From Halocafeteria seosinensis (lineage: Eukaryota): a stretch of 64,000 nt of DNA. Shown one piece after another: positions 1 to 47,454 of the stretch. Numbering within the stretch: position 1 is the first letter of the stretch; every line of letters begins with the position of its first letter. A program made the position numbers and the translations under genes. The stretch covers positions 1 to 64,000 of the forward strand of contig LVLI01000353.1 of assembly GCA_001687465.1 (NCBI GenBank), read 5' to 3'. A model generated the notes under the pieces. The model was not told the origin of the DNA and ran no database searches. It saw only the letters and a program-made list of their open reading frames with translations.

Positions 1-1648
1 GAGTGGGAATACGGGCATGATCCATATCAAGACTGGAAGCACAAACAACGGTGATTCTGGAAATATAGTATTTAGTAGTGGTCAATCTAACGACGGTTCT
101 TCTGGGAGTCTTACATTTGGCACAGGAGTTAGCACAGACGGCGAGAGTGGATACGTAAGCCTCAGTACCGGGAAAGCTGACAGTGCAAACTCGGGCTACA
201 TCCTTTTGGCTACTGGTGATGCGGAAGAGGGAGACTCCGGTGGAATATCACTTCTTGTAGGACGGAGTACGAGTGGGAACGGAGGCAGTGTCATCATACG
301 GGCTGGCTCTGCAGTAGATGCTGGACACTCGGGGGGACACGTAGAGATCTCCAGTGGTGGAGGAAATTGTGGGGGTAGTGGACAAGTAACATTGCAAAGC
401 TCAGATTCTTTGGAAAGCGGAAATACTGGATCATTGAAAATTAATAGTGGTGCTACAGTTTGTGGAACGTCCGGAAGCTTCTCAATACAATCCGGGCGGA
501 GTAACTGTGGATCCTCTGGTTCCATAGCAATCACCACAGGAAATGCCGAGGCTGGCGTTTCTGGACAAATTACATTGAAGACTGGATGCAGCAGTGAAGG
601 AGCATCAGGAAGTTTGTCGCTTCTGGTAGGAGCAACTACCCAAGGTAATGGTGGTTCGATCGTAATCGCTGCGGGTAGTGCTACAGACTCTGGAGGCAAG
701 GGAGGCTCCATTGAGTTTCACAGCGGGGGTGGTAATGAAGGTGATAGCGGAGAAGTGACAATGCGGACTTCCGATGTTGGGATCGAGGGCAGTACAGGAG
801 ATATTGATATCGCGAGTGGGTCCACCAACGTTGGAAATAGTGGTTGGATTCTTGTTCGCTCTGGTAGCGCTGCCACCGGTAACACGGGCACTGTCACACT
901 CAACACCGGAAAGAGTGAGTGTGGCTCTTCTGGTGCCTTCTTGTCGAAAACTGGAAACTCGATTGGCGGAAATAGTGGTGGGTTTAGCTTTACTACCGGG
1001 AATGGGAGGAAAAGCGGGTCCATATCGCTTATTAGCGGCGACGCCTGCTCTGGGCCTTCGGGAGGAATTGTATTGCAAGTTGGAGCGAGCAGTATGAACG
1101 ATGGAGGCTCAGTGATCATCAACGCTGGGTGTTCACAGGGTAGCACTAGTCAGGGTGGTAGCATCTCGTTGACTACGGGGGGTGGTAATGCTGGAGGGAG
1201 CGGAGACATCGATATGAGAACAGCTGACACTCAGGGTTCTGGGGACACTGGCAATCTTCAACTCACAACCGGAAATGCGCAGAGTGGGAATACGGGCATG
1301 ATCCATATCAAGACTGGAAGCACAAACAACGGTGATTCTGGAAATATAGTATTTAGTAGTGGTCAATCTAACGACGGTTCTTCTGGGAGTCTTACATTTG
1401 GCACAGGAGTTAGCACAGACGGCGAGAGTGGATACGTAAGCCTCAGTACCGGGAAAGCTGACAGTGCAAACTCGGGCTACATCCTTTTGGCTACTGGTGA
1501 TGCGGAAGAGGGAGACGCCGGTGGAATATCACTTCTTGTAGGACGGAGTACGAGTGGGAACGGAGGCAGTGTCATCATACGGGCTGGCTCTGCAGTAGAT
1601 GCTGGACACTCAGGGGGACACGTAGAGATCTCCAGTGGTGGAGGAAAT
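1..1648 (+). repeat. Near-identical internal duplication in giant ORF A: 1-367 vs 1282-1648 (offset 1281 nt = 427 codons)
   Basis: Direct comparison shows identity apart from about 2 substitutions (GDSG/GDAG and one synonymous tcg/tca). The copy probably extends beyond the window start. Confidence 0.95.
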
Positions 1649-4600: not shown

Positions 4601-7600
4601 ACGGAGGGTACAGGTGGTGCCGTCGTGCTCCGCGCTGGAACGAGCACTTGCGCCAAGGGTGGTCTTGTTGACATTGTATCTGGTACTTCTTGCTCAGGAA
4701 CAAGCGGAACTGTCACCATTTCTACTGGCTTGTCTACTTGTGGCGCGTCAGGGGGGTTGTTCGTGGCATCAGGTACCTCCAAAGCAACCAGTGGAGCTAT
4801 GTCCATATCGACAGGAAGTAGTACAGAGAATAACAGTGGAAAACTGAGTTTACGCACGGGGAATGCCTCTGCCAGCACGTCTGGTTACATTCTCTTTCGG
4901 ACTGGAAATTCTGCGCAGGGCTCTGGTGCCTTGTCTGTTCTAACGGGAGTGTCATCAGACGGATACTCAGGGGAAATACTTTTAGAAACAGGTTGCGCGC
5001 TAGCTTCTAATGGAGCCAGCGGGTATATCAGAATGAGGACTGGATGCTCTCAAACGAACAGTGGAGGAATAACTCTAGCAACCGGGGATGTACCAAATGG
5101 GGAGCAAAGTGGTTCAATGTCGATGATGAGTGGTAACTCCCATTCTGGTCATTCAGGAAGTCTCCAATTAAGAAGTGGGCAAGCCAATAGTGGGGATTCT
5201 GGGAGCATTACAGTTGCCACAGGAGAGTCTTGCTCTTCAAACTCTGGCGTTGTAACCATTGAAACAGGGGAATCATTCGTAAGGAGTGGCTCTATAGAAG
5301 TAGGTACTGGTGCATCCACGGGGTCCGCCTCTGGAGATATATCGATGACTTCAGGATCGGCGACATGTCGCAGTGGTAGCGTATCTCTCGTTGTAGGGGA
5401 CGCAAATACCGGAGACACCGGCAACATAGAGATTACTGCAGGAACTGTCACTAACGGGGACGGTAATGGTGGCTCTGTTACACTGCGTAGTGGAGACGCT
5501 TCCAATGGGTCATCTGGATCCGTCGAGGTTCGGAGTGGTGGTGTCAGTGGAGCCGGGGATTCAGGAAGCTTCATTGTAGGTACCGGCAGTACTCCTGATG
5601 GAAACTCTGGTTCAATTTCGATTGTCGGAGGGGACAGTAACGTGGGTGACACTGGAATGATATCAATCGGCTCAGGGAAGACTAATGAAGGAGTCAGTGG
5701 GAGTATTTCCGTCTACTCGGGGGTGGCTTGTGATGGCCAATCTGGGTCGTTGTATCTGTTTACTGGGTGTGCTATCGCCGGGAAATCTGGATCGGCTCGT
5801 CTAATGACAGGCAGTAGTACGTGTGGAGATAGTGGGTCCATTTCTATCACTGCTGGGGAAGCAACCGATGGTAATGGTGGTGGTGTGTTTATTGCTGCCG
5901 GACCCTCTACAGGCTCTTCAGGAAAAGGTGGAAGTGTCACTATACAAGGAGGAAGAAGTTGTCAAGGGCACTCTGGATCACTTAGTTTGCGTACTCTAGA
6001 TTCTTTGGTTTCAGGGAATAGTGGATACCTTCGGATCGGGACAGGAGATGCAGCCACTGGGTCTAGTGGATCGATATCTCTTTGGACCGGGCTAGTTACA
6101 GATGGATCTTCTGGTGGATTCCTTCTTTCATCAGGGGAGGCAACTTGTGGCAACTCCGGCTATATAGCGTTATTAACAGGTGGGGCAGAAACGGACACTG
6201 GTTCCATTTCTCTCGTTGTGGGTACCAGCTCTAAAGGGAATGGGGGTAGTATCTTAGTACGCGCGGGTACGGCTCAAGCCTCAGATGGTAAAGGAGGCTC
6301 TGTATCCATATCTAGTGGTGGCGGGGAGCATGGAGATAGCGGCGATGCGTATGTTGCCACTGGGAGTGTCAGTGAGGACGGAAAGAGCGGTGTACTCGTA
6401 CTGAGCAGTGGCAGTACTTCCACTGGAAATACTGGCTACGCTAAACTAGTAACTGGGGATGCTAATGAAGGCGATAGTGGTATGCTGCGGATTTCTTCAG
6501 GTGAAAGCATTAGCGGTAACAGTGGGCAGATAGACATCAACTCAGGGTCCGTGACAAGTGGAGATAGTGGCTATCTGTCCTTAGCAACAGGAACTTCTGA
6601 AAATGGAGATTCCGGATACATGCTCTTGCAGACAGGACAGTCGAACTGTGGACGAAGTGGTGGTATATCTTTTCTAGTCGGCAAGAGCACAGCGGGAAAT
6701 GGAGGAGATGTGGCCCTCAAAGCTGGGACTGCAATAGCAGCGGGTTGCTCTGGAGGCTCTATACTGATCAAAACTGGCTGTAGCCGGAGCGGAAATAGTG
6801 GGAGACTGGAGTTTGTAACTGGATCAGGTGGATGTTCCGGAGCAAGTGGTACAATTGCGCTGTCGTCTGGTTTGGCGTGCACTGGGGCCTCAGGGAGCTT
6901 ACTGCTCGCATCAGGGCGTTCCGAAAGTGGTGCCTCGGGCACCATGTCGCTTTTGACGGGGGTTGCCGAGAATGGCAACAGTGGAGCGTTTGTGGCATTT
7001 ACTGGTACCGCCTGTCAACGAACAGGTAGTATGGAACTTTCCACGGGTTCTACAACTTCGGGTTCCTCCGGCTCAATACTTGCTGGTACGGGGTCAGGAC
7101 AAAATCGCTCAGGTTCCTTGTCTATTCTAGTGGGCACGTCATGCGGCACAGGAGGCAATATGTTCATCGGCGCAGGGAGAGTGGAAGGTCTGGGGGGCAA
7201 AGGCGGGTCCGCACAATTAGTAAGTGGCTCCGCCACTAATGGAGAGAGTGGGCAGATATCAATCTTGACAGGAGATGTTACTCAAGCCGGTAACACGGGA
7301 AGTATAGTTATGCGTTCAGGCTCTTCGAACAACGGAAGCACCGGAAGCGTTAGCATTTTTTCCGGCAGTAGTTCTAGTGGTGACAGCGGCCGGCTCACAT
7401 TGCGAACCGGTTCTTTGAATGATGGGGAAAGTGGTCCCATTACTCTGCAGACGGGTACAACGAAAACAGGAAATAGTGGGGCTGTAAGCTTCTTAAGCGG
7501 TTCCACAAACGGAAGGAGTGGTTCTTTGACATTCTCGTCTGGGGATTCTAATGTTGGTCCTTCGGGATCGATTTCACTCTCATCAGGAGCGTCCGTATCT

Positions 7601-16600: not shown

Positions 16601-19600
16601 TCCGGGAATAGTGGCTCGCTTCGGATGCATTCTGGAAGCAGTAATAACGGGGCTTCGGGCTCAATTTCGATATTAACGGGGAAAGCGCAGGGTGCTACCG
16701 GCGGTTTGGAGATGATAACGGGGACCTCTGCCCTTAGCGACAGTGGGTATATCGAGGTTCAAACTGGTACGGGTAACAAGAGTGGGAGGTTGAGTTTCTC
16801 GACTGGCAATGCTAGCTCTGGAAACACCGGTTACATAGCAATAGTAACCGGAGACAGTGAGGTAGAAACTACTGGTTCAATAAGTATCACAGTTGGGCAA
16901 GCAAACGCTGGCAAGGGGGGGGATGTGCATATCTCGGCGGGTTCTTCTTCTGACCCGTCAAGTGGAGGTGGAAGAATCACCGTTATTAGTGGCGGTGGTA
17001 ATTCCGGAGGCAGTGGAGACGTCAGCATTCGCACAGCGAATGCACTTCACGAAGGAGATACCGGCACGGTTGTGCTCAGTACTGGTAATACCAACACTGG
17101 CAATACTGGAAGCATCACTCTGCGCTCAGGAATGACTACTTCTGGAGACACTGGCGATTTGATCTTTAGTAGTGGTACATCGAAGAAAGGAAACAGTGGT
17201 ACATTGACCCTTGGAACCGGTGCCACAACAAATGGAGACAGTGGTCGTCTTAGTATACGCAGTGGACAAGCGAATAACGGAAATAGTGGATACCTTTTGT
17301 TGGCTACTGGGAGTGCAAATGGTGGTAGTGGTGGATCAATTTCGATGCTAGTAGGGTCAAGTACTGTTGGAAATGGTGGTGATGTGTACATTTCTGCTGG
17401 ATCTTCGACTGATGTGGATGCTCGTGGTGGCAATATACAGATAATTAGTGGCGGCGGTAACACCGGCGGTAGCGGAAGCCTAAGCATTGTTTCAGCGGAT
17501 ACTAATGCTGGTACATCTGGCTCGTTTACTCTTCGCAGCGGGTCTTCAAATACCGGAAATAGTGGAGGGTTGGTTCTGCACACTGGCAATGCGGCTACGG
17601 GCAACTCGGGAACTCTTTCCATGACGACTGGGATGTCCAACTTTGGCTCCAGCGGCAAGGTTGTGTTAGCCACCGGGGGGTCTTGCAACGGGATGACCGG
17701 CTCTATCGATATGAGTACAGGTGCTGCATCTTCTGGTGGTTCTGGGAGAATACTGGTACGCACCGGAGATTCCAATAGTTCTTCTTCCGGGTCAATTTCA
17801 ATGGTAACTGGAACGTCAAACAAGAAAACTGGCGGTCTTACATTTTCCAGCGGGGACGGAAGCGAGAACAGTGGTATCCTTGTGGTCTCCACAGGGAAAA
17901 GCATTTGCGGGAATAGTGGAATGATCACTATTGCAACTGGGAAAAGTGCAGGTACTGGTGCTTCGGGCAACATTGCTATGTCCTCCGGAGAAACTAATCA
18001 AGGATCGTCGGGATCAATATCTATCCTCTCTGGTTCCTCCGCAAGCGCTAACAGCGGCGATATAGTTCTAAGTACGGGAGCCGCTCCTAATGGGAAAGCG
18101 GGTTCCATCCTGCTTGGCACAGCAGCTGGTGGCGATGGTCGGGCAGGAGGCTTTTCTTTAGTTTCCGGGTTATCTTCCAACGGGAATGGTGCGCACGTTG
18201 TAATATTTGCAGGCTCTACCCTTGATATGGACGGAACAGGTGGTTCGGTCTCGATTTCCTCTGGAGGGGGTAGTTGTGGTGATTCTGGTGGGCTTGTGTT
18301 GGAGACTGCAGATGCCCATGCGGTTTCCGGTATTATATCAGTTTCAACTGGTATGTCAGAGAATAACTCGGGAGCGTTGACACTTGGTACGGGAATTGCA
18401 CATTCCGGAACAAGTGGGGGCATTTCTATCTTCACGGGGGTCAGTAACATCGGCCACTCGGGGGTGATCGACATCTTTTCAGGTGACGCCAGTTCCGGTG
18501 CTTCTGGAAAGATTGAGGTGCTTACGGGGTCTTCTTGTAGTGGCAATTCTGGTAGTATTTTGATTAAGTCCGGTGAAGCAAACAGCGGCAGTAGTGGTAG
18601 CCTCTCTCTACTCGCAGGAAACGGAAATTCCGGGGGCAGTGTCGATGTGCGCGCAGGAATGGGCAATAATGGGGACGGTGGTTATGTTGCAGTAATTTCA
18701 GGGTCTTCTTGCAGTGGAAATACCGGCTCAATTTCTCTAGTTACTGCTGACACCGAGTCTAATGCCTCTTCGGGTTTAGTAAACATTCGATCGGGCAACG
18801 CGGGAGGGGCTTCGGGTAGGATTACAATGGAGACAGGAAATGCTGAAGCCAATAGCGGGCACATTAGGTTTGAAACTGGTACCTCTGTCTCCGGTGCGAG
18901 CGGTAGCATTTCTATGTTTACGGGAAAGAGCGACGGTGATTCAGAATCCGGGGCAATAAATTTGACTACAGGCAATGCAAACGGGAAATCAGGGTCGTTA
19001 AATATCTCCTCAGGGAATTCTCTTACGGGGAACTCTGGGGGCATCACAATATCGGTTGGGTCTAGCAGCTCTGGAATGGGTGGGTCTATTTCGATTTCGA
19101 CAGGGGAGAGCAATGCAGAAAACAGCGGACGAGTAGTGCTACTAAGTGGAAACTCTGAGTGTGGTCGATCTGGGACAATAGTTATGACGAGCGGGTCCAG
19201 CAACGCCTCTACAAGTGGGGCAATTTTAGTTGCCACTGGTGCTAGCTGTTCAGGGGCTTCGGGTAGTTTTGAGTACGCAACAGGGGAAAGCCAACATGGG
19301 TCATCAGGCGAATTGACAGTTAGATCGGGAAACGGCATGTCTTCCGGCTCGATTTCCTTAGTGTCCGGAGACTCAGAAGCAGATTCCGGGAAGTTAGCTC
19401 TGGGTACGGGTACGTCAGATGGCTCCAATGCTGGTTCAATACGTATAAGCACAGGAACAGCTAACTGTGGGAGATCAGGTTCGATATCCGTTGTAGTGGG
19501 TCGTAGCACAAATGGAAACGGTGGAATCGTCTCTATCAGGGCGGGTAGCTCTCACAAACTGAAGGGTGGCAGTGTCAGTATCTCTAGCGGAGCTTCCCCT

Positions 19601-22600
19601 ACGGACAGTGGTGATCTCCTCCTACACAGCGCTAGCAGTAACGCAGGTGGCAACAGCGGAGCTTTGAGTATCTTTTCAGGAGATGCAAGTACTGGCGACA
19701 CTGGATCTCTTACTCTACAGACAGGGTCGTCCTCATGCGGGTCTACAGGCAGTTTTGATGTTATTTCAGGAAGTACTAATGTAGGAAATAGCGGAATGAT
19801 TCGCATAGAAACAGGCGCAGCAAACCAGGCTAAGAGCGGGGGTATTCGCCTACGTACTGGAGCCACTTCCTGTGGCAATGCTGGACACATACATATAGCA
19901 ACAGGATCCTCCAAAACCGCCGTTGGCGGTACCTTTTCGCTGTTAGCCGGCTCAAGCGAAACCGCGAGAGGTGGTGACGTTATTGTAGCAGCCGGCTCTT
20001 CATCGGACCCCGATGCGCAAGGTGGAAACGTAAGGATCACGAGCGGAGGTGGCAATGCTGGAGACAGTGGAGCGATAACAATCTATAGTCCCGACGCGTT
20101 GTCAACTGGAAATACCGGGCAAATACTGTTAAGCACTGGAGACGCTAATTCTGGAGACACAGGAGCGATCATATTCCGATCAGGCGTAACAACCTTGGGT
20201 GACTCTGGTGAGGTCATGTTGAGCAGTGGTATGTCCTGTGGAGGAAATAGTGGAACTCTAACGTTAGGCACTGGTGCCACCACAAACGGTGATAGTGGGC
20301 GCATTGTCTTGCAAAGTGGATCTACGAACAACGGGAATGCCGGGTTCATTCTTATTGGTAGTGGTCAAGCAACAAATGGCATCGGTGGATCAATTTCTCT
20401 GTTGGTTGGGTCTAGTGATTCAGGTAGCGGAGGTAATGTATACGTTGCTGCTGGCTCGTCATCGGATTCGACCGCGGCGGGAGGGTCGATACAGATTCTT
20501 AGCGGAGGTGGTGACTCGGGAGGGAGTGGAGACATTTCTATCGAGAGTTCCTCTGCCACGATCGAAGGGAGTACGGGCGCAATCCTCTTAAGTAGCGGTG
20601 ACACTTGTAGTGGGAACACGGGGTCGATCATTCTCCGTTCAGGACTGACAAGTGCAGGTGATTCAGGTGAAGTCATGCTCAGCAGTGGTATATCGCTGAT
20701 GGGTAACAGCGGGAGACTGACACTTGGTACGGGAGCCTCCACGGACGGGGACAGTGGCCGCATTATTTTACATAGTGGTGGAGCAAACAACGGTAATGCC
20801 GGCTATATCGTGATTGGTACTGGGAAAGCGCAATGTGGTGTAGGAGGCTCGATTTCGATCCTCGTAGGCTCAAGTGGAAGTGGTAATGGTGGTAATATTA
20901 ACCTCTCCGCTGGAAGCTCATGTGAACGAGGCGGAGGAATAGTCTTAGCTTCCGGAGAGGGTGAAACGTTTTCGGGGGCTATTTCTATTTTCACCGGAAA
21001 AAGCAATTCCTCTGGAAGCGGAGGTTTAGCCATTGGCACAGGCATATCCGCAAAAGAGTCTGGAAGCGTCCAAATTGACACCGGTACATCCAACGGAGAC
21101 TCCGGCCTGATTCTCATCAGTTCAGGAGATTCGGATACAGGTGTTTCTGGTGAGGTGACGGTGAAAACAGGAGGTGGTTGTAAGCAGTCAGGGCTTATAA
21201 GTATTCGTTCGGGGGAGAGTAATCTTGTGAACTCTGGTTCAATCATCCTCGCTACGGGCAATGCCAATAGCGGTAGATCCGGAAACCTAATTATCTCTGT
21301 TGGACGGGGCAACGAAAATGGAGGCTCAATCCGCATTGAAGCTGGTGCATCCACTGGTGGCAACGGGGGTGGTATAAGTATTACCTCGGGAAATGGCGTT
21401 TCCTCAGGCAAGGTATTTATAGCGTCTGGTAACAGTTCATGCGGAAACAGTGGTAGCCTGAGCATTGTAAGCGGAGAAGCTGAAAACGTCTCTGGGTCGA
21501 TCACGTTTCGTAGTGGTGACGCCGATAAGGATTCAGGAAGCTTGGACATATCCTCTGGAGCCGCACAATCAGGCAACTCTGGATTCATTCTCCTAGCGAC
21601 GGGCCCCTCAAACTGTGGGATAGCCGGGTCGCTTTCTATTGTTACAGGCTCTTCACAAAACAAAGGTTCCAGCATTTACATAAGAGCTGGAGAAACAAAC
21701 TCATCGACTCATGAAGGGGGATCAATCTCGTTAATTACTGGAGATTCAGTGGGGGGAACAACAGGTTCCCTGACCCTTCGTACTTCGGGGAACACTGCAT
21801 CAATGGACTCAGGAGAAATAGGACTAGTCTCTGGACGTGTTAACGAAGGAAATAGTGGTTATATAGCCATATATTCTGGATTGACTAACTGTGGTACCTC
21901 CGGGACAATCAGCGTGACGACAGGTTTATCAACTTCTGGGAACACAGGTGGAATTACAATTGCCACCGGTGTCACGACTGAAGGGGATTCTGGAAGTGCA
22001 ACTTTACGCACAGGGAAATCTACCTCAGGAAACAGTGGTAACGTCTTGATAAGTACAGGGGAAGGTATCAATACTGGCTCAATTTCTGTTGTTGTTGGTT
22101 CAGCTACCACCAACGGAGGATCTCTCGCGGTTATGGCAGGGTCGGCGACGGGGTCAGACGGGATTGGTGGAGCTATCACGATTGCAAGTGGATCTGGAAC
22201 CGCAACAAGTGGTTTTATAGATATTGAGAGCGGTAAAGCTCACGATTCAAGTGGGTCGTTGAGTGTAGAGACAGGAGCGGCTAATAACGGCGATTCCGGT
22301 GATATAAGCATTGGCACTGGGAATTCTAACTCCGGGAAATCGGGGTCTATACTCTTGAGTGTAGGCGATAGTAATCATGGTGGCGTTGGAGCTGTGCAGT
22401 TTCAAACTGGGACAGCAAATGCCGGAGACTCTGGGTCCGTAAAATTTGTGGTCGGGGATAGTGATAGTGGAAATTCTGGCAGTCTTATATTTGTCACGGG
22501 GAAGTCCAATTCGGCCGACTCGGGATCAATTAGAGTTATCACAGGGAACAGTGATTCTGGGAATTCGGGTTCGATTTCCTTGCTCGGTGGGTTGGCGGAA

Positions 22601-25600
22601 AATGGTAACGGGGGTGACATTTTCCTCTCAGCCGGCCGGAGTGAGGCAGGCCGAGGAGGCGATGCAACCATTTTCACAGGTCTTGGTTCCAACGGTGATT
22701 CAGGGGCTCTGTCTCTTATTTCTGCCACGGCAGACGGAAATTCAGGAAGGCTGAGTTTGACTACAGGTAAATCTGCTCAGGAATCTACTGGAAACATCGT
22801 AATGGCATCCGGAACCTCGGGCACGGATAGCGGTACGGTTTCGATTCTGACTGGCGGTGCCAATGGAGACTCAGGTTCTATTACGCTGTCTACGGGTTCA
22901 TCTAATTCCGCCATGTCTGGTGGTATCTCGTTATTTTCTGGAGGCGCGGACTCGAGTGGGTCTGTTGTAATCCGGAGTGGGAATGCCAATGTTGGAGGCG
23001 GGGGCTCTATAGAACTCGAGACTGGCGAATCCTCTCTTTCTAGTAGTGGAGGGATCAGTATTCGAACGGGAGACGTAGACGTAGCAGGGGCTTCCGGAAA
23101 TATCCTATTCTCCACCGGTAGCTCTTGTGATGGAGACACTGGAGGCTTTACGGCGTCTACCGGCTCAACAAACATAGGAAACAGTGGAGCTCTTGAAGTT
23201 CGCTCAGGGATGGCTCAGTGCGGTTCTTCCGGGTTTATCATCCTTCAGACTGGAGATTCCAGAAGCGGAGAAAGCGGGGGTCTAAGCTTTGTTTCAGGAG
23301 CTAGCAATGCTGGCGAAGGCGGGGGAATCGTTCTGTCAGCTGGCTCAAGTGTAGCTTGTGGTTCTGGTGGCTCAATTGACTTCTTTTCAGGCTCTGCATG
23401 CAACGGAGAGACTGGGTCATTGACCATCGTGACCGCCGCAAGCAATTTAGCTAATACCGGGCATATCTTACTCAGTACTGGGAATGCTATCACCGGTTCC
23501 TCCGGTCATGTTGTTTTGTCCACTGGTTCGTCGAAGCATGGAGAAAGTGGAGGAGTTACCATCACGACTGGGGACGTTACTGCCTCTAATGCTGCAGCTG
23601 GAGACTTTGATTGGGAAGCCGGTTCCAGTAGCAAGGGAACAGGGGGGTCAATTCTACTGACCGGTGGGAGCGGAAATCGCGGTGGGTCTGTGTCGATCAT
23701 CGCTGGAGTAGCGTGCAGTAGTTCCGGTATTGGTGGCTGCATCGCTTTTGAGACCGGACGCAACAACGATGGAATGTCAGGTGAACTGTTGCTCTTGACA
23801 GGTGACGGCTGTTCTTCCGGAAGCATCACTCTCGCCACCGGTACTGCTAGCACTGACATATCCGGATCAATCACCGTATCAACAGGTAATAGCGGAAACG
23901 AAGGGGCTGCTGGAGGCATAGAGTTACAAGCGGGTAACAGCATTGACAACACAGGAGCAGGTGGCGGTATCACCGTTCGAGCTGGCAAAAGTAGCACCCA
24001 AGCGGACGGAGGAGACATAGAAATTGTTGGTGGGGGTAGCACTTCTGGCAACGGAGGCTCCGTACGTCTTCAAGCAGGAAACAGCGTACACCACGATGGG
24101 GGTGATTTATCAATTGCCTCTGGCAGCGGAAACACAGAATCCGGGAGTATAGACATCCGGTCAGGGGATGCAAATTCTTCTGGATTCTTAGCTTTAGTGT
24201 CTGGCAAGAGTAGCGGAACCAGTGGTTCTATCAGTTTGATTACTGGATCCAGTAGCACAGGATCCAGCGGGGATATTATACTATCCACGGGAAGTGCATC
24301 AGTGGCTTCTGGAAGCATTTCTTTGTTTGCAGGCGAAAGCAATGGTGACGGGGGTGCCCTTGTTTTACAAAGTGGCCGCAGCAACACTGGCACGAGTGGG
24401 GAGGTCATTATTGCATCTCGCAACGGTCAGTGTTCGGGCTCAATCGAGATTCGTACGGGTAGTTCTGATGTTTCCAGTGGTTTCGTCGACATTAGCACGG
24501 GAGATAGCAACGGTGCAGCTGGCAGCATCAGCATTACCGTAGGCTCGGCTAAGGACAAAGCTGGGGATGTTGTCATTAGGGCTGGCGACGCTTCCTCTGG
24601 TAGTGATTACAATGGGGGATCCGTTTCCATTATAGCTGGCAAAGGACCAAGCGCCGCGACAAAACGCAGCGGCGTCGTGAGAATAGAGACCAGTAGCAGT
24701 ATCTCTGGTGACTCGGGTAAGGTAACATTAGCTACAGGCAACTCGGACGGAGTATCCAATGGCTCGGGTGCTATCACGCTCCAGACTGGGGTAGGAACAG
24801 GTTCTTCCGGGAATATTCATCTCCTAGTGGGTGATTCAAATGCTAACGGTGGATGCATCATACTTTCTGCCGGGAAGTCTGTCCGTTCGGGCACTGGTGG
24901 CACCGTTCTTATACAGGGAGGATCGTCATCCAGCGGGAATGGTGGATATGTCATTTTGTCAGCGGGTAGTGGGTCAGCAAATGGTGGTGCCATTAGTATA
25001 CAAAGTGGCGCTAGCAATTTTGCCCTCAGCGGCAGTGTGCATGTACTTACGGGAGATGCTTGTGAAGGGTCTAGTGGTGATATAGATATCGGGACAGGAA
25101 GAGCTACCTCAGGTAGAAGTGGCGACGTTCAATTTACGACAGGTGATTCAAGTGGAGGCAATAGCGGCGAGCTTGTTTTGGCAAGCGGAAAGGCTTCGAG
25201 TGCTGACGCGCATGGGGGCTCCATATCGATTGTTGTGGGCGCATCCGGCAACAATGCGCGTGGTGGCAACTTGCTCCTTCAGAGTGGGAAAGGTGGCTCG
25301 CACTCTGGAAGTTTGTCGATGATCACAGGTAACGGCGGGAACACCGGCTCCATTGTATTTTCATCCGGCCAGGCGAACAAACAGTCAGGGAAACTTGCCT
25401 TTTCCACGGGGAAATCGAATTGCGGAACGTCTGGTGATATAGTAATGAACATTGGCACATCTGTGAACGGAAACGGGGGCAACTTCCTCGTGACGTTAGG
25501 TAGTGCAGAAACCGGAAACGGAGGAAGCATTAGTCTCCTCAGTGGGGATGGCAATCGGGGTGGTGACATCGTAGTCTCTGCCGGGGATGGTACTTCTAAT

Positions 25601-27115
25601 GATGGTGGTGGTGTTACTATCTCGAGTGGTTCCAGCAACAGCGGTAAATCTGGAGATATAGACATATTTACAGGCGATGGGAGTGATGGGTCTTCGGGTT
25701 CAATTATTCTCAGTACTGGGTCAGCGACTACATGTGGCCGAGCTGGAGGACTAAGTTTGATCACACACGGGGCGGAAAACGGAAACTCAGGTTCGCTTGT
25801 GCTCAGTGTTGGAAGGTCGTTCAATTCAAACGGTGGTTTCATTTCCTTAAATGCTGGGAGCTCAACTGGCGGTAATGGTGGAACTGTGTCACTCATTGGA
25901 GGCAAAGGAGAAAACATGGGTGGCCATGTTGTTTTGGCTTCTGGAGAAGCAAACGGAGACACTGCTCTAAGTGGACTCATCCAAGTTCAAAGCGGAGAAG
26001 GGACAAATGGGGCCGACTCAGGAAACGTGGTCCTTCAAACTGGTTCTGGTGTCAACAGCGGTTCTATCTCGATTATATCGGGTAAAGGGAATGAGATGTC
26101 CGGTCATCTTCGCTTCGCTACTGGAGCAGCAACCAATGGTGATAGTGGTTCATTGGTTTTTGTAGCCGGCGAGGCAACCGCTTCAGGCAGTGGAGGCCAC
26201 ATTTCCTTGTTGGCAGGCTCGTCGAACCTTGGTGACGGTGGAATGATTGTCTTATCAGGAGGAGAAAGCGCTGCTGCGGACGGTGGGGGAGGTGATATCA
26301 TGCTATTTGCCGCTGGGAACACCCAAGCGGGAGGCAGTATTTCCATAGTTGCTGGAAGTAGCGACTCTAATCCCTCATCAAATGCTGGGAACGTGTACAT
26401 TAGTGCTGGTGAGCACAACGGAGCAAATGCTGGCAGGGTGTTATTGACAACGCTAGGTGGTGATAGCGAAATCGACATAAGAAAATCTATCAGGATCGAA
26501 GCGCTTGAAGACGTGACGGTGGATGCTGTGGAGGATTTTACACTCACTGCAAATACTATAGACTTTTTGGTTGCTGGAGGTACGACAGCAGGGGTCAAAA
26601 TAGAGAGCGCGACACAAGCGACATCAGCATCCGCAAGCATTGACATTTCTACAAATGGTGAAGGGGACATGATGTTCACAATTTCCGAATCGACAGGGAC
26701 TTCTGTTTCCCCGGGGGTCTTCAAGATCATTACCACTATACCTGCTAGTACAGCCAACGAGAGAGGCAGGATAAAACTTGGAAGTGATGAAATGGAAGGA
26801 TTCACCGAGTTATGGACGGTCGTTGCTTCGTTTGCAGACGGGAGGGAGCTTGTCGACGGAGAGCAATTCCACGACAGGATTTCTCTCAGTGAGCCGGACT
26901 TCTCAACTATGAATGCTTCAAGAGACATGATTTTCACACAGCTCCCATTCACCCCAGGGATAGTCTCATCGGCAACCGTGAACACGGCCTTCAGCGGCGG
27001 TGGTTCCGGTATCGATCTATACCTCACTAACCCGACAGACACGCCTATCAATATAGAAACTGGGCAGGGTGTGGTCTTCTTGCAAATTATACGGATGACT
27101 GATGGTAGCTCGTAG
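2..27115 (+). CDS. Giant Gly/Ser-rich repeat protein A (>=9037 aa, 5'-truncated by the window); predicted beta-helical fibre with a non-repetitive C-terminal tip
   Basis: A single frame is open from position 2 (agt ggg aat acg ggc atg...) to TAG at 27113-27115. It carries hundreds of 14-16-aa units such as GQILLSTGDANSGDT and GAIIFRSGVTTLGDS; the last ~220 aa are non-repetitive. The ATG at 17 is internal, since the same sequence recurs at 1298. Confidence 0.93.
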   Translation, partial: SGNTGMIHIKTGSTNNGDSGNIVFSSGQSNDGSSGSLTFGTGVSTDGESGYVSLSTGKADSANSGYILLATGDAEEGDSGGISLLVGRSTSGNGGSVIIRAGSAVDAGHSGGHVEISSGGGNCGGSGQVTLQSSDSLESGNTGSLKINSGATVCGTSGSFSIQSGRSNCGSSGSIAITTGNAEAGVSGQITLKTGCSSEGASGSLSLLVGATTQGNGGSIVIAAGSATDSGGKGGSIEFHSGGGNEGDSGEVTMRTSDVGIEGSTGDIDIASGSTNVGNSGWILVRSGSAATGNTGTVTLNTGKSECGSSGAFLSKTGNSIGGNSGGFSFTTGNGRKSGSISLISGDACSGPSGGIVLQVGASSMNDGGSVIINAGCSQGSTSQGGSISLTTGGGNAGGSGDIDMRTADTQGSGDTGNLQLTTGNAQSGNTGMIHIKTGSTNNGDSGNIVFSSGQSNDGSSGSLTFGTGVSTDGESGYVSLSTGKADSANSGYILLATGDAEEGDAGGISLLVGRSTSGNGGSVIIRAGSAVDAGHSGGHVEISSGGGNSGGSGTASFKSSDSNGVGDSGSVEIFSGDALCGNTGSLLLFSGDAWDDSGNVSLLSGSSCEGSSGQMDISSGNANVLRSGDVHVRTGSAGACSGELLFTTGNADGASGSISIVAGSSNVGNGGRVAIKGGTSSSGSGGYVHLLTADLTSGPSGAISILTGSSTGSGARSGAVTIASGEANHSSGNITIETGKSSASKTGNLRVQSGDGHTESGYLLMKSGKSNVGNSGPISVITGLSCCGRSGHILLSTGDANTNSGGVSILVGSSTSSNGGAVRIIAGNSNNGAGGSIDVSSGQGNLSSGNVSVGSASAANTGRLEIRSGDASHASGGISVASGNANTSLTGSITINSGSSKSGDSGALFLITGSSESASSGNIELASGLSCGGLSGSISFASGNARLSSGSVTLRVGDSYCGQGGTITIHAGNANSSLPGGRIRIQTGASENGNSGSVSIRTGKSNTKNSGYLLFASGGSSSGKSGAISQVTGEAGSCSGRLLLATGNSKDSSGSLIFSTGKSNCGDSGSISLLVGLSDTNQGGDVFVQAGNSVSGRGGNVFVSSGASNKQSGTVSIESSTSTNGNTGRVLIATGLSGGMKSGQLEIASGTANSGNSGSITIKTGQSNTKTSGSTTVSTGDSTSGCSGSVSIITGSSDASCSGSIFLQTGNANTAAGSISLLVGDSQSSSGGCVVIKAGLVTDGNQRGGSILISSGGSNLGGSGRISMRSADTHGTGDTGNFLVQTGNAETGDTGLIHITTGSTNGGDSGNILFNSGESNDGSSGSLTIGTGSTTSGDSGYLTLSTGKSDTGNSGYILLATGDAEGGDAGGISLLVGKSTKGNGGSVIVRAGSSSDTGHAGGDLLISSGGGNSGGSGQAILRTASSSGCGNSGSLQLLSGDTLTGDTGNVKLATGTTNEGNSGALVLASGESVSGSTGKITFSTGSSAEGNSGSLMWSTGESNTQDSGSILVQTGSSCEGETGSISLVVGHSTEGTGGAVVLRAGTSTCAKGGLVDIVSGTSCSGTSGTVTISTGLSTCGASGGLFVASGTSKATSGAMSISTGSSTENNSGKLSLRTGNASASTSGYILFRTGNSAQGSGALSVLTGVSSDGYSGEILLETGCALASNGASGYIRMRTGCSQTNSGGITLATGDVPNGEQSGSMSMMSGNSHSGHSGSLQLRSGQANSGDSGSITVATGESCSSNSGVVTIETGESFVRSGSIEVGTGASTGSASGDISMTSGSATCRSGSVSLVVGDANTGDTGNIEITAGTVTNGDGNGGSVTLRSGDASNGSSGSVEVRSGGVSGAGDSGSFIVGTGSTPDGNSGSISIVGGDSNVGDTGMISIGSGKTNEGVSGSISVYSGVACDGQSGSLYLFTGCAIAGKSGSARLMTGSSTCGDSGSISITAGEATDGNGGGVFIAAGPSTGSSGKGGSVTIQGGRSCQGHSGSLSLRTLDSLVSGNSGYLRIGTGDAATGSSGSISLWTGLVTDGSSGGFLLSSGEATCGNSGYIALLTGGAETDTGSISLVVGTSSKGNGGSILVRAGTAQASDGKGGSVSISSGGGEHGDSGDAYVATGSVSEDGKSGVLVLSSGSTSTGNTGYAKLVTGDANEGDSGMLRISSGESISGNSGQIDINSGSVTSGDSGYLSLATGTSENGDSGYMLLQTGQSNCGRSGGISFLVGKSTAGNGGDVALKAGTAIAAGCSGGSILIKTGCSRSGNSGRLEFVTGSGGCSGASGTIALSSGLACTGASGSLLLASGRSESGASGTMSLLTGVAENGNSGAFVAFTGTACQRTGSMELSTGSTTSGSSGSILAGTGSGQNRSGSLSILVGTSCGTGGNMFIGAGRVEGLGGKGGSAQLVSGSATNGESGQISILTGDVTQAGNTGSIVMRSGSSNNGSTGSVSIFSGSSSSGDSGRLTLRTGSLNDGESGPITLQTGTTKTGNSGAVSFLSGSTNGRSGSLTFSSGDSNVGPSGSISLSSGASVSANSGKIVFTAGSAWGVGGRISISSGTGQGVSRSGGIGVTTGDSNLGASGAISLTTGKSEGDSSGAITFITGDSPNGGNSGQIMLSSGAGNSGKSGAILILSGNANTSTGSISVLVGHAENEGGDIVFQAGGSSEEDGGSVAITSGGSNSGSSGSISLVSLASLGSTGGTTIKSGESTEGNSGSMLLSSGKAASGRSGEIKLKTGSSNCGSSGTISLETGCSIEGTSGSLNYVTGSSCSGSSGHIALISGNADNGKSGSLSLNVGTVNSGDGGKIWVTAGDSSGENSEGGGITFMSGGSADGDSGSISLLTGKILQSGNSGMFSATTGNAQGGNSGSVLVRTGKASLGASGSLTMYSGDANEGDSGGISITTGITDSGSSGSIVLGSGDSNSGNSGALRLVTGDSSAGGAGDISVLVGSSGNGNGGSITIKGGTSKAICGNGGAISILSGKGGSGGRSGDISLATDSASCQGSGSLSIYSGLSELDSSGYITISSGKSCSGRTGSVQISSGVGNERSGAIIIHSGNGQQSTGAIGVHTGKSNSASSGSIALSTGNANSGKSGSMLIKTGCSNCGSTGAITLSVGTSRSGNGGEILLDSGKSDIGGSGDVSILSGGSDNGDSGKISVQTGNAIEGFSGSLVFASGSAKSGDSGKVSISAGSSTSGNSGGIHLLTGSGNKASGSISLHVGSSNSSGGSIVLHAGCTKCANGGSVQITSGGSEEKNSGSIILSTGVALLGNSGSITSVTGTSDNGASGAIILGSGCGLSSGDISISSGQGNTNTGKMSLRTGTSCSGNSGSIELKTGDGNCGRSGDILILSGNGNSAAGSISLIAGHSDCGDSGHIVLSGGRSDSSVGRGGSISLFSGASNAGSSGDLHLTTSKGESASGELQLHTSGGQGNSGAIKIQSGDSATMNSGLVLLESGDAHSSSGAIRVSTGSVNEGSSGSLRFLSGNTEDGNSGVLTVSTGVACNGRAGSISLTVGSSSNAAGGEIAISAGASTSGQNKGGSLTMLSGAGTNADSGSIVVGSSKVTGLANSGAISISSGKGNNGDSGPLKLLSGSAVEGDTGDIIIATGHSSCGASGNIVIETGCGNASGSAGSISVLIGKSGSGDGGNIILSAGESSCGNGGTITILTGEVANGGTSGSFSLLTADANVNGDTGSILLSTGTTCSGFTGCIRIVTGSSDTGDTGYMYAATGTAINGKSGAVSIATGVSDDGESGSVRISSGASNGGNSGWILLQTGGAESGASGGVSISVGNSGCGSGGSIFLRAGNGQGNADGGAVVLETGESAQSNSGSLKLSTADQSLATSGSLVIESGTSSSADSGSVLMQTGKANGRSGAFSLFTGSSTSNRSGNLAFYTGGTNSGLSGVLTARTGTSIEGSSGYLLLQTGSATSGEGGSISLLVSSGANGGSIHISAGNASGSGGNGGSVLVQSGGGNGDGSGAVSIMSADVSHCGTTGSLEIRTGKTLDGNTGIVTVSSGSSQSGTTGYISFASGTSSNGGSGQVTISTGATTEGSSGSLELTTGRTNSGNSGFILISTGDSVEGIGGSISFVAGNSKVQEGGSIFGAAGVSNDATVGGSIEFRSGKSLLGCSGGIGIRTGSGKISSGNAILKTGEADNGNSGSFSIFSGTASSSSGHLDLRSGDASSGDSGYILLSTGRSNCASSGGISILGGKACGAGGSIELHAGNSKSMSGGFVSISTGSGCQGSSGSISIATSSATKRTGSLILSTGVSEEQNSGEILVQSGQATEGNSGNIAIRTGAACETTGSIILSSGNSASGSSGSISILGGDGSCSGSRVSIIAGFSGGPNSTGGKIRIVAGKSKCSSSGPITFSTFNSQSSTNSGGILFSTGRSCSGTSGHLSFSTGDGVNMGNSGLIVIHSGMSQGGDTGAIDLSTGKATLASGDMKIATGESNCGNSGHVSILTGSACGRSGGISMIAGASSSSTGGSIVIEAGSTTSTTHSGGAIDLHGGAADGVGLSSGNVSVQSGCSIGGSSGSVNILTGNAADASGRLFIRTGAANKHSGSLSITTGASTAGDTGGVVVLSGMAGNNSGDILLATGTANNGRSGSLSILTGRSSNGASGHVAVIAGDANNGLGGSISLLAGSSQNHAATGGAVTIITGNGCSDSGAIQIESHCMFSGSSGSITLRSGGLSQGATGQLAVSSGGSNSGSSGNILVSSGEAGNDSGSITLNTGAANEGSSGALVLSVGESNEGNTGFLLMRTGSACKASGSISLVAGSSNGAGGNFLIKAGDSGGEENGGAIILASGNANFGQSGKISLSTGSSSSAGSSGEATIKTGNSVSGVSGSISVVTGRSNSGDTGSVDIATGASNCAESGALLLYSGDSNQSDSGGLLLSSGTSSNGNSGYIALVTGSARHRTGAISIVVGESEVDDGGVISIRAGNSNGVNAKGGSVSVVSGSSLNGNSGSIELRTRTSKSGNSGRVAFSTGSSCQGSSGSLSFISGNAAQRNSGSIHVQSGSTVSGTSGNIRIATGRALQSGSISAMTGAANEESGDIVLSSGSASNSGSVSIVAGVGNSMGGNVVLMSGSSNGQSGFVNVITGSGGAGKSGELSLFSGRGSVATGNIRMFSGESQEGNSGYVKIFTGCAHDGKSGSFDIATGNSNDDHSGYIKLSTGSGTKSSGSISLLAGIANTNAGSIVMSGGDSLSAAGLGGSIEIVSGKGEAASGMLEFSTAKGGNSGTSGLVVLRTGSSTSGNSGSVSVFTGQSNCQRSGHVHIGSGNGKEQGSGSLTLASGDAEAKFSGSISISTGNACSGASGSILYGSGGSTSGPSGSISLLSGASNGGNTGSVTIKTGKTSTEAETGDITVSTGQSPLGISGGMTLRTGCADSWSGSLSVSTGSSAENSGYLYFSTGNSNNGNSGAVDVTTGAASCRGSGAISLSTGSGHNTGKLVLETGVSNKRSGSIYVSSGNAGMSTGMVKILTGKSDSASSGNVILATGNSNTGQSGGVAIKSGKGNTSGELELRSGDSNSGNSGSLRMHSGSSNNGASGSISILTGKAQGATGGLEMITGTSALSDSGYIEVQTGTGNKSGRLSFSTGNASSGNTGYIAIVTGDSEVETTGSISITVGQANAGKGGDVHISAGSSSDPSSGGGRITVISGGGNSGGSGDVSIRTANALHEGDTGTVVLSTGNTNTGNTGSITLRSGMTTSGDTGDLIFSSGTSKKGNSGTLTLGTGATTNGDSGRLSIRSGQANNGNSGYLLLATGSANGGSGGSISMLVGSSTVGNGGDVYISAGSSTDVDARGGNIQIISGGGNTGGSGSLSIVSADTNAGTSGSFTLRSGSSNTGNSGGLVLHTGNAATGNSGTLSMTTGMSNFGSSGKVVLATGGSCNGMTGSIDMSTGAASSGGSGRILVRTGDSNSSSSGSISMVTGTSNKKTGGLTFSSGDGSENSGILVVSTGKSICGNSGMITIATGKSAGTGASGNIAMSSGETNQGSSGSISILSGSSASANSGDIVLSTGAAPNGKAGSILLGTAAGGDGRAGGFSLVSGLSSNGNGAHVVIFAGSTLDMDGTGGSVSISSGGGSCGDSGGLVLETADAHAVSGIISVSTGMSENNSGALTLGTGIAHSGTSGGISIFTGVSNIGHSGVIDIFSGDASSGASGKIEVLTGSSCSGNSGSILIKSGEANSGSSGSLSLLAGNGNSGGSVDVRAGMGNNGDGGYVAVISGSSCSGNTGSISLVTADTESNASSGLVNIRSGNAGGASGRITMETGNAEANSGHIRFETGTSVSGASGSISMFTGKSDGDSESGAINLTTGNANGKSGSLNISSGNSLTGNSGGITISVGSSSSGMGGSISISTGESNAENSGRVVLLSGNSECGRSGTIVMTSGSSNASTSGAILVATGASCSGASGSFEYATGESQHGSSGELTVRSGNGMSSGSISLVSGDSEADSGKLALGTGTSDGSNAGSIRISTGTANCGRSGSISVVVGRSTNGNGGIVSIRAGSSHKLKGGSVSISSGASPTDSGDLLLHSASSNAGGNSGALSIFSGDASTGDTGSLTLQTGSSSCGSTGSFDVISGSTNVGNSGMIRIETGAANQAKSGGIRLRTGATSCGNAGHIHIATGSSKTAVGGTFSLLAGSSETARGGDVIVAAGSSSDPDAQGGNVRITSGGGNAGDSGAITIYSPDALSTGNTGQILLSTGDANSGDTGAIIFRSGVTTLGDSGEVMLSSGMSCGGNSGTLTLGTGATTNGDSGRIVLQSGSTNNGNAGFILIGSGQATNGIGGSISLLVGSSDSGSGGNVYVAAGSSSDSTAAGGSIQILSGGGDSGGSGDISIESSSATIEGSTGAILLSSGDTCSGNTGSIILRSGLTSAGDSGEVMLSSGISLMGNSGRLTLGTGASTDGDSGRIILHSGGANNGNAGYIVIGTGKAQCGVGGSISILVGSSGSGNGGNINLSAGSSCERGGGIVLASGEGETFSGAISIFTGKSNSSGSGGLAIGTGISAKESGSVQIDTGTSNGDSGLILISSGDSDTGVSGEVTVKTGGGCKQSGLISIRSGESNLVNSGSIILATGNANSGRSGNLIISVGRGNENGGSIRIEAGASTGGNGGGISITSGNGVSSGKVFIASGNSSCGNSGSLSIVSGEAENVSGSITFRSGDADKDSGSLDISSGAAQSGNSGFILLATGPSNCGIAGSLSIVTGSSQNKGSSIYIRAGETNSSTHEGGSISLITGDSVGGTTGSLTLRTSGNTASMDSGEIGLVSGRVNEGNSGYIAIYSGLTNCGTSGTISVTTGLSTSGNTGGITIATGVTTEGDSGSATLRTGKSTSGNSGNVLISTGEGINTGSISVVVGSATTNGGSLAVMAGSATGSDGIGGAITIASGSGTATSGFIDIESGKAHDSSGSLSVETGAANNGDSGDISIGTGNSNSGKSGSILLSVGDSNHGGVGAVQFQTGTANAGDSGSVKFVVGDSDSGNSGSLIFVTGKSNSADSGSIRVITGNSDSGNSGSISLLGGLAENGNGGDIFLSAGRSEAGRGGDATIFTGLGSNGDSGALSLISATADGNSGRLSLTTGKSAQESTGNIVMASGTSGTDSGTVSILTGGANGDSGSITLSTGSSNSAMSGGISLFSGGADSSGSVVIRSGNANVGGGGSIELETGESSLSSSGGISIRTGDVDVAGASGNILFSTGSSCDGDTGGFTASTGSTNIGNSGALEVRSGMAQCGSSGFIILQTGDSRSGESGGLSFVSGASNAGEGGGIVLSAGSSVACGSGGSIDFFSGSACNGETGSLTIVTAASNLANTGHILLSTGNAITGSSGHVVLSTGSSKHGESGGVTITTGDVTASNAAAGDFDWEAGSSSKGTGGSILLTGGSGNRGGSVSIIAGVACSSSGIGGCIAFETGRNNDGMSGELLLLTGDGCSSGSITLATGTASTDISGSITVSTGNSGNEGAAGGIELQAGNSIDNTGAGGGITVRAGKSSTQADGGDIEIVGGGSTSGNGGSVRLQAGNSVHHDGGDLSIASGSGNTESGSIDIRSGDANSSGFLALVSGKSSGTSGSISLITGSSSTGSSGDIILSTGSASVASGSISLFAGESNGDGGALVLQSGRSNTGTSGEVIIASRNGQCSGSIEIRTGSSDVSSGFVDISTGDSNGAAGSISITVGSAKDKAGDVVIRAGDASSGSDYNGGSVSIIAGKGPSAATKRSGVVRIETSSSISGDSGKVTLATGNSDGVSNGSGAITLQTGVGTGSSGNIHLLVGDSNANGGCIILSAGKSVRSGTGGTVLIQGGSSSSGNGGYVILSAGSGSANGGAISIQSGASNFALSGSVHVLTGDACEGSSGDIDIGTGRATSGRSGDVQFTTGDSSGGNSGELVLASGKASSADAHGGSISIVVGASGNNARGGNLLLQSGKGGSHSGSLSMITGNGGNTGSIVFSSGQANKQSGKLAFSTGKSNCGTSGDIVMNIGTSVNGNGGNFLVTLGSAETGNGGSISLLSGDGNRGGDIVVSAGDGTSNDGGGVTISSGSSNSGKSGDIDIFTGDGSDGSSGSIILSTGSATTCGRAGGLSLITHGAENGNSGSLVLSVGRSFNSNGGFISLNAGSSTGGNGGTVSLIGGKGENMGGHVVLASGEANGDTALSGLIQVQSGEGTNGADSGNVVLQTGSGVNSGSISIISGKGNEMSGHLRFATGAATNGDSGSLVFVAGEATASGSGGHISLLAGSSNLGDGGMIVLSGGESAAADGGGGDIMLFAAGNTQAGGSISIVAGSSDSNPSSNAGNVYISAGEHNGANAGRVLLTTLGGDSEIDIRKSIRIEALEDVTVDAVEDFTLTANTIDFLVAGGTTAGVKIESATQATSASASIDISTNGEGDMMFTISESTGTSVSPGVFKIITTIPASTANERGRIKLGSDEMEGFTELWTVVASFADGRELVDGEQFHDRISLSEPDFSTMNASRDMIFTQLPFTPGIVSSATVNTAFSGGGSGIDLYLTNPTDTPINIETGQGVVFLQIIRMTDGSS

Positions 27116-27413
27116 ACATAACCCATAGACCGCACCCGGCAAGATTACAGCTATGGTAGAACTCGGGTACATACATTATAGTTACCACCATGATATTTGT
27201 ATACCACTTCTTGTTTGTTATTGGTGCTTACCGAACAAAGAATAATGACATCCTTTGTTTACATGGAAATCTCAGATCTGCTTTTCACTGAATCATTGGA
27301 GCACTTCACAAATGCACTCTGCCATTATCCCTAGTGTTAGTGTTTTGTGTCGAAGCAGGGTCATTCGCTGTCTTCAAGTTCACTGTTGCACAGCATTTGT
27401 ATGTATCGTACGG

Positions 27414-28202
27414 ATGGAGGTATCAGTCCCTTCCGGTCTGGTGAACGACAAGAGCACCCATGACGAGGAGTGTTATGAGGGTGGAAGACAAATAGCGCAA
27501 TGGGTGTATAATAGTGGGATCCTCGTAGAGCTTCCAGTCATTGTGCATCATCGAGAATCCATCCCACACCTTCTCACAGGTGCGCCCTCCTCCTCGTCTT
27601 CAGTACATGATGAGGGTGGTGCTCCAGGAGCAGCAGAGACGAGACGATTGCTCTGGACGATTGCGTCGGATCTCTCCATGGCACAAGACAATGGCACTGC
27701 CGAGGAAGTGGCTGTGGACGATGATAATAAGTATGCGCGGTATTTAAAAAGTGACGACTGGAAGGTGGCTGTCCCTGAGGCATCCTCGGGGAAACGGAAC
27801 CAAGGGTGTTTGGCTCTTCGCCTTCGGTCCTCGGACCCCTTCGCACCCAGCACCATAAGTGGCAAGTATCGATTGCGGGGATCCAACTTCTTGTTACGAG
27901 TGCCGAAAAACAGGCAAACAACGTCAGCCAAGGCGGTACTCCACAAGAGGATACCGGGAAGAATAGAGTTTAATAGACCAATGGATGCCGTCTACCTCAT
28001 CTCGAGAGGAGAGGGAGAGAAAACTACTTCCTCTGATACAAATTCTACGATGGCCACATCTGCTGAGGGAGTGGAAATAGAGCAAAAGAAAGATCAACAA
28101 AGCATACCGATCCAATCATTGCCGAACACCCTTTGCTTGAGCCGATTTCCTCGGGACTACTGGAATCACGCAACTTCCAAAACCTCAGCCTCTCATAGCT
28201 GA
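27414..28202 (+). CDS. Protein resembling the N-terminal domain of TFIIIC subunit 5 (Tau95/Sfc1/GTF3C5)
   Basis: Motif order VELPVIV...LALRLRSSDPFAPSTISG...SNFLLRV...IPGRIEFNRPMDAVYL...LPNTLCLSRFPRDYW parallels my recollection of Tau95_N (VEYPG.V / L.L.FRP.DP..HPI / NLLLKV / F..MADFQY / PP.FS...P.DY). Start inferred at MEVSVP (ATG 27414). Confidence 0.55.
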   Translation: MEVSVPSGLVNDKSTHDEECYEGGRQIAQWVYNSGILVELPVIVHHRESIPHLLTGAPSSSSSVHDEGGAPGAAETRRLLWTIASDLSMAQDNGTAEEVAVDDDNKYARYLKSDDWKVAVPEASSGKRNQGCLALRLRSSDPFAPSTISGKYRLRGSNFLLRVPKNRQTTSAKAVLHKRIPGRIEFNRPMDAVYLISRGEGEKTTSSDTNSTMATSAEGVEIEQKKDQQSIPIQSLPNTLCLSRFPRDYWNHATSKTSASHS

Positions 28203-42662: not shown

Positions 42663-42930
42663 CGCTTTTCTATTTTTATTTTTATTTTTCTGTTTTGTTG
42701 ACACACTAGAATAGTAGTCAATCGAACAATATGACTCATGAGTTTACTATAGTATAGACTATGGACCATGGAAATTACTGTATAACGGGCCGCAAGTTGA
42801 AGTTGAAGTTATGCAACTAGATTGTCTCATTATCTATCATACATGAGTTGTCCTTATTCCCTCTGTGGTTGTGCAGTATATTGTATGTGAACCACTCAGT
42901 CCCGGTAGCAGATGGATCGTTTGGCATGAA

Positions 42931-47442: not shown

Positions 47443-47454
47443 CTTCATAGAAAC

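Follow-up and report, generated by a model that had tools for sequence, protein, structure and literature searches.

The window, a 64,000-nucleotide stretch of a Halocafeteria seosinensis contig, begins inside a single reading frame (gene A; positions 2..27115, plus strand, frame +2) that is open at its 5' side and runs through 9037 codons up to a stop at 27115. A second 5'-open frame (gene B; 63999..47455, minus strand, 5514 aa, 350 repeat units) lies tail to tail with gene A, 20 kb apart from it. The features of the locus are as follows.

2..26476, plus strand: shaft of gene A, 589 repeat units, each about 15 aa long, with the pattern G-x-I/L-x-L/I-x-T/S-G-x-S-x-x-G-N/D-S; 5' end outside the window
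2..381, plus strand: gene A internal in-frame duplication, copy 1, from blastn self-comparison; the window begins inside this copy
1283..1662, plus strand: gene A internal in-frame duplication, copy 2, from blastn self-comparison
26477..27115, plus strand: non-repetitive C-terminal tip of gene A (about 210 aa)
27249-28202: Tau95-like gene
about 32071-36808: WDR19/IFT144 gene
37784-38323: ARMT1-like gene
40386-41342: adaptor mu subunit gene
41481-42743: TPR gene
43396-44124: ankyrin gene
about 45900-47600: SpoU gene with four GT..AG joints
47455..48384, minus strand: C-terminal tip of gene B (about 310 aa), which does not align with that of gene A
48385..63999, minus strand: gene B shaft, 350 units, more degenerate than those of gene A and likewise periodic over 10 units; its 5' end lies beyond the window
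55068-55566 and 53814-54312, minus strand: gene B internal duplication, 499 nt, 98.6% identical

At the composition of the window, a stop-free run as long as gene A would arise by chance with a probability of about 1e-198. The encoded protein contains 21.8% Gly, 20.7% Ser and 8.4% Thr, so that 41% of its residues are Gly or Ser, and it carries 39 N-glycosylation sequons. Segmentation yielded 589 consecutive units from aa 5 to about aa 8825 with a mean spacing of 14.98 aa. The spacing is 14-16 aa in 526 of 588 cases, 13-17 aa in 585, and never exceeds 18 aa, which indicates that no intron-sized insert interrupts the repeat. A loose form of the repeat motif occurs 500 times, compared with a mean of 20 and a maximum of 31 in 100 shuffles. 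Among the 588 complete units, the first Gly is present in 585 and the second in 549, while positions 3 and 5 are hydrophobic in 576 and 572, respectively. The Asn/Asp position is filled in merely 235 units, and is thus a preference rather than a ladder; 69 units match the strict full consensus. The hydrophobic autocorrelation is 0.43 at lag 15 and -0.04 at lag 12. Each unit is predicted to form one β-strand plus a loop. A super-period of 10 units, corresponding to a module of about 153 aa, is found in both genes (z of 8.6 in A and 4.5 in B), and Cys pairing between neighbouring units showed no enrichment at lags 1-6.

The two copies of the gene A duplication are 98.9% identical and are offset by 1281 nt, or 427 aa. 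Over the 27 kb of gene A, blastn detected five self matches at the DNA level, the units having diverged. The recent in-frame duplications (427 codons in A, 418 codons in B) suggest that both genes are still growing by internal duplication. Comparison of the two genes gave no blastn match at the DNA level, and their tips do not align (best E of 0.26); by these comparisons the paralogue pair is old. No S74/ICA domain was found in the gene A tip with an ICA profile and six-frame translation, nor in gene A, gene B or the six frames of the window with Pfam or a profile built on six relatives. An EGF head is likewise missing from the visible parts of A and B. The gene A tip contains no transmembrane stretch, the top 19-residue hydropathy over the whole frame being 1.68.

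The initial annotation had proposed a giant frame of at least 9000 aa, about 600 uninterrupted units of 14-16 aa and a distinct tip after the repeat. The 9037-aa frame, the 589 units and the roughly 210 non-repeat residues at 26477-27115 bear out all three proposals. Its consensus holds for the nearly invariant Gly and hydrophobic positions and fails for the Asn/Asp ladder. Its paralogous pair stands in the second, 350-unit gene, with the correction that the pair is old.

DNA of the window is present in four sequencing runs of one study, X1 to X4. All 30 bins of positions 1-20000 are covered by X1, which differs there at 275 bases and has no listed indel. Among the 40 of these 275 differences that are listed, 24 are synonymous (pN/pS of 0.23, p of 6e-6); at the level of sequence, these 40 show the gene A protein to be under selection. 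X1 may be the sample from which the window originates, and is therefore not counted as independent support for the assembly. The depth of X1 doubles at 668-2001, 5337-6670 and 16676-17342, so the exact number of gene A units could differ from that given here. One X1 contig goes back by 1316 nt at window positions 5372-6687. The doubled depth and the back-jump possibly reflect copy-number variation of repeat blocks, or additional near-identical blocks upstream. Contigs of X2-X4 bridge four GT..AG gaps in the SpoU gene, as spliced RNA would (the runs are not recorded as RNA), and cover 19, 28 and 18 of the 30 bins in the gene B region (44001-64000). Together, the skipped GT..AG stretches and the coverage indicate transcription of gene B. 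X2-X4 do not cover 1-20000 and contain 0.29-0.31 of the words of 20000-27500, neither of which counts toward expression of gene A.

The genes between A and B (27249-47400) are of ordinary, intron-bearing eukaryotic housekeeping types, and the presence of IFT144/WDR19 among them indicates that the host is a flagellated eukaryote, putatively a stramenopile. Several minor features were noted in this region. Upstream of the WDR19 gene, a sequence of about 225 nt is duplicated in tandem (98%) at 31255-31681. A single-exon frame of 172 aa on the minus strand (44363-44881) has a signal-peptide-like start, is covered by X2-X4 contigs and has no Pfam match. A short, high-copy interspersed element lies at about 45277-45398, where the X1 depth reaches about 20,100 versus about 85-100 around it. 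Many loose contig ends fall on this element, which is also found in X2-X4 and has no Rfam match.

A phmmer scan with the last 1037 aa of gene A returned 405 matches. Among the best 150 of these, 145 contain at least three adjacent unit pairs at a spacing of 13-18. Thirty of the best 150 were looked up. Those with a species name come from Lagenidium, from two species of Aphanomyces and from Achlya; the five eukaryotic records named in this way are all from oomycetes, and one record is from a metagenome and labelled 'tail fiber domain-containing'. Of 30 relatives picked as phage-like, five match PHROG families outside the repeat, with a tail, head-decoration or virion family as the best match in four of the five. 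The gene A tip is 46-49% identical to relative P0001, and over 164 aa it shares 35% identity with the C-terminal portion of P0053, a phage-like fibre (pairwise E of 7e-9); an atlas lookup of the tip scored under 0.9 and serves as a lead only.

An S74/ICA domain occurs in 22 of the best 150 relatives, including one from Achlya and one from Aphanomyces, and is usually followed by repeat units. In P0009, P0005, P0017, P0117 and P0133 the domain is internal, with repeats on either side and up to three domains per protein, and several of the internal domains lack the Ser of the cleavage motif. Such domains are possibly internal folding stations, or the chains possibly polyproteins of several fibre segments.

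In P0040 and P0150 this repeat is joined to a head that matches each of the six types of chain in 9UFE, a tubular mastigoneme structure (best E of 3e-32 and 2e-30, respectively), and in P0040 the head is preceded by a signal-peptide-like start. The EGF-plus-linker segment of these two proteins is also present in P0008 (3935 aa; E of 6e-15), which has no match in the PDB. The OCM-type head is therefore found in two of the best 150 relatives, or three if P0008 is counted. The same 150 include four clear and two weaker PSI-type heads, and other relatives have phage-type N-termini. The occurrence of the repeat behind PSI heads and phage-type N-termini suggests that it serves as a shaft module in general. 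Neither an EGF-linker segment nor a PSI head was found within the window. The prokaryote-like repeat protein P0045 contains, at residues 19-287, three copies of the linker that follows the EGF portion in the OCM fusions (best E of 3e-7).

Six slices of the repeat and tips gave no match to Pfam (0/6) or PHROGs (0/6). Searches of GenBank phages gave none, those of PDB sequences gave three chance antibody rows, and profiles against the PDB gave none. Word-indexed homologue searches returned no match, a weak result given the low sequence complexity. Viral contigs searched with a gene A slice and P0018 yielded no relative. A search of viral contigs with P0093 found 15 loci, all through its non-repeat domain and none encoding the repeat, and one with P0053 found two short unannotated phage matches. 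Scanning metagenome contigs with a 5' slice and the OCM-fusion alignment yielded no relative. In the atlas the repeat lies closest to viral and oomycete clusters (0.97, with low recognition; a lead only). The repeat is a widespread family outside Pfam, common to oomycetes, other protists and phage-like fibres. No description of this 15-residue repeat family was found in the literature covered, which leaves out most subscription papers and preprint supplements.

An AlphaFold2 model of gene A aa 354-656 was computed from an alignment of 70 rows consisting of the window's own overlapping self-repeat slices. The model has a pLDDT of 88.6 and a pTM of 0.77, and DSSP assigns β pairing to 2 of 303 residues, as expected of one chain lifted from an intertwined trimer. 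Compared with 48,161 solved chains, it reached a Z score of at least 2 with only four, in a range that the tool calls uninformative.

6wv2: Z 3.9, rmsd 5.7, 194 residues aligned
2c3f: Z 3.6, rmsd 5.5, 191 residues aligned
4ufq: Z 3.1, rmsd 6.0, 158 residues aligned
24qj: Z 2.3, rmsd 5.2, 122 residues aligned

All four are phage proteins, three hyaluronidases and one tailspike chain, and the three hyaluronidases are intertwined triple β-helices. In BFVD, two uncharacterised Caudovirales proteins match the model with E values of 2e-5 and 7e-4. According to a preprint on the TLP-12 proteins (10.1101/2025.09.30.679562), ICA promotes triple-β-helix folding and TLP-12 rises 9.6 Å per two-strand repeat, from which 4.8 Å per strand was adopted here. 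At 4.8 Å per unit, the 589 units of gene A span 283 nm and the visible units of gene B 168 nm, both values being lower bounds. Taken together, the monomer model and the ICA domains of the relatives suggest that gene A probably encodes a three-chain intertwined β-helix, a thin and stiff rod at least 0.28 µm long.

In such a structure, each unit would contribute a short strand, whose Ile/Leu residues (positions 3 and 5) point to the axis, followed by a Gly-bounded Ser/Asn loop. A single chain would be an open coil in need of two partner chains, so that each additional unit would add about 4.8 Å and the number of units would set the length of the rod. The C-terminal tip may set the three chains in register, with folding proceeding toward the N-terminus. 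The relatives would use the S74/ICA chaperone for register; there is none in the visible 9037 aa of gene A.

TLP-12 candidates are described in the same preprint (10.1101/2025.09.30.679562) as giant (about 20,000 aa) Gly/Ser-repeat triple-β-helix proteins of protists, for example the 19,853-aa Amoebophrya candidate A0A8J1ZHD7. Gene A resembles these proteins in being a giant, Gly/Ser-rich protist chain of short repeats (at least 9037 aa), in the association of three chains as a triple β-helix with 4.8 Å per strand, which for gene A is a prediction, and in its link to the ICA chaperone, which for gene A runs through relatives with internal ICA. In contrast, the TLP-12 repeat is 12 residues long (GSxxSx7) and forms two strands of 3 residues, and the chain closes with an ICA at its C-terminus, whereas gene A has a period of 15 and a single, longer strand per unit, and ends in a tip domain that lacks ICA. 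The relatives of the gene A repeat are oomycete and phage-like, unlike those of TLP-12. Gene A contains 116 G-[ST]-x-x-[ST] motifs and no pair of them at a spacing of 12. Membership of gene A in TLP-12 was rejected on account of the period of 15 and the missing C-terminal ICA. Its Ser/Thr-rich loops are at most compatible with a dense O-glycan coat of the TLP-12 kind.

Phage triple-stranded β-helix fibres (the streptococcal phage hyaluronidase of 2c3f and 6wv2, Hyal_Sk 4ufq and the S74-chaperoned tail fibres) are the sole structural neighbours of the model with a pLDDT of 88.6, as hyaluronidases and a tailspike, at weak Z scores. The S74 chaperone of such fibres is also found in relatives of gene A, and phage-like proteins share the same repeat and a tip related to that of gene A. 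However, a phage fibre chain has a few hundred residues and is in some cases an enzyme, whereas gene A is a eukaryotic nuclear gene with about 590 strands per chain, and the phage hyaluronidase fibres have no sequence match with it by phmmer or profile. The third related system is the OCM/Mas proteins of stramenopiles (9UFE; PnMas1-3), with an OCM-type EGF head fused to the repeat in P0040 and P0150; the solved chains of 9UFE are EGF-type, 209-748 aa long, and are not matched by the repeat profile. The β-helical fibre of the initial annotation, most likely an intertwined trimer of about 0.3 µm, thus finds support in the confident model, the four structural matches, the S74/ICA domain of 22/150 relatives and the TLP-12 value of 4.8 Å per strand. 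Its description as an undescribed system was overstated, as giant protist triple-β-helix proteins had been proposed in a 2025 preprint and the repeat belongs to a broad family already present in oomycetes and phage-like proteins. Among the roles that it had offered, a surface hair gained support from the OCM-type heads of relatives; no such support was found for an extrusome, a tether or an adhesin.

Stramenopiles are characterised by tripartite flagellar hairs, which reverse the thrust of the flagellum. The hairs are tubular and bear one to three terminal filaments (PMC2108286), which in small marine heterokonts are 0.3-0.4 µm long (PMC9310263); PnMas1/2 are located in the tubular shaft of the hair. 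The 283-nm lower bound for gene A is near this filament length, which could be chance. The OCM head of the relatives is the sole link found to a characterised eukaryotic structure; together with the length near filament size it favours a hair filament. The trimer rod of gene A would accordingly form one of the fine filaments at the ends of the tubular hairs on the flagellum. At its N-terminus, beyond the window, the protein would have a signal peptide and be fixed to the hair shaft by an anchoring head, which is of OCM/EGF type in some relatives; a second type of filament would come from gene B. A three-chain fold combined with this flagellar-hair role, with the 5' end outside the window, is our tentative reading, at somewhat less than an even chance. 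It is doubtful, though conceivable, that the terminal filaments of stramenopile tripartite hairs are single giant trimers with a 15-residue repeat and tip of phage-fibre type, their length given by repeat number (at least 589 for gene A, about 0.3 µm) and genes A and B serving different filaments of one hair. No protein assigned to terminal filaments was found in the literature covered, which excludes most subscription papers. In the searched part of supplement 1 to a Phytophthora zoospore proteome (PMC12223298), no S74 or tail-fibre term occurs. An 812-aa EGF protein annotated 'protein autoprocessing' in that study has similar spectra in cell and flagellar fractions, and no link to it was drawn.

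The fold evidence applies equally to a general cell-surface glycofibre, tether or adhesin of a TLP-12-like kind, unconnected to hairs, whose tip would bind substrate, prey or host and whose paralogues would supply two tips. The likeness between the gene A tip and the C-terminal portion of a phage-like fibre and the unrelated tips of A and B would suit such a fibre, as would the Gly/Ser content of 41% and the 39 sequons, as in a glycan-coated fibril. The TLP-12 candidates belong mostly to parasitic or symbiotic alveolates according to the preprint (10.1101/2025.09.30.679562), and the OCM head is missing from most relatives of gene A. Yet the visible part of gene A is without a membrane anchor, and mastigoneme proteins provide the only characterised eukaryotic structural link, so that a surface fibre of this kind is possible and, on the whole, unlikely.

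An improbable arrangement is a single-chain parallel β-helix with two or three units per turn, which would give a shorter and thicker rod of about 0.1-0.15 µm. A single-sequence model of the last 537 aa of gene A adopts such a fold and matches tailspikes, lyases and adhesins (best Z of 13.8), and the unit lengths of gene A have some power at period 2 (2.1 times the mean). The pLDDT of this model is 41.5, however, versus 88.6 for the open coil, and the ICA chaperone of 22 of the best 150 relatives speaks against a single chain. Foldseek of both models against the PDB returned nothing at E of 0.001. Adjacent units of gene A are anti-correlated in charge at strand positions 4 and 6 (z of -3.7) and in volume at position 4 (z of -3.9), and no anti-correlation of charge or volume was seen at lag 2. 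The complementarity at lag 1, rather than lag 2, fits stacking of each unit on the next unit and not a single-chain helix. This signal was not reproduced in gene B (z of +1.2 and -1.8), and the noise among the 78 tests per gene is evident from a value of -3.3 at lag 4.

An internal discharged thread, an extrusome or infection structure kept in a vesicle, would suit the size and the secreted-type composition, and is highly improbable, as no relative, paper or neighbour gene ties the family to extrusomes and the neighbours are housekeeping genes. An assembly artefact or a non-functional insert of phage DNA, for which the start of the window inside a 98.9% duplicate, the doubled X1 depth over three stretches with a contig jumping back 1316 nt, and the phage-like counterparts of repeat and tip might be cited, is scarcely credible given the diverged units with five DNA-level self matches in 27 kb, the X1 coverage of 30/30 bins of 1-20000 with no indel listed and a pN/pS of 0.23, the intron-bearing eukaryotic neighbours and the coverage of gene B by spliced-type runs.

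If the three-chain fold is true, the kind of protein encoded by gene A would, next to TLP-12, represent a second design of giant eukaryotic triple-β fibre, and its roughly 590 strands would have to fold in register with no ICA chaperone adjacent to them. As a flagellar-hair filament, gene A would be a concrete candidate for the terminal filament, whose length rule of 4.8 Å per unit is testable and whose unique tip could be targeted with antibodies. Should the link to hairs fail, gene A still marks a widespread repeat family that has no Pfam entry.
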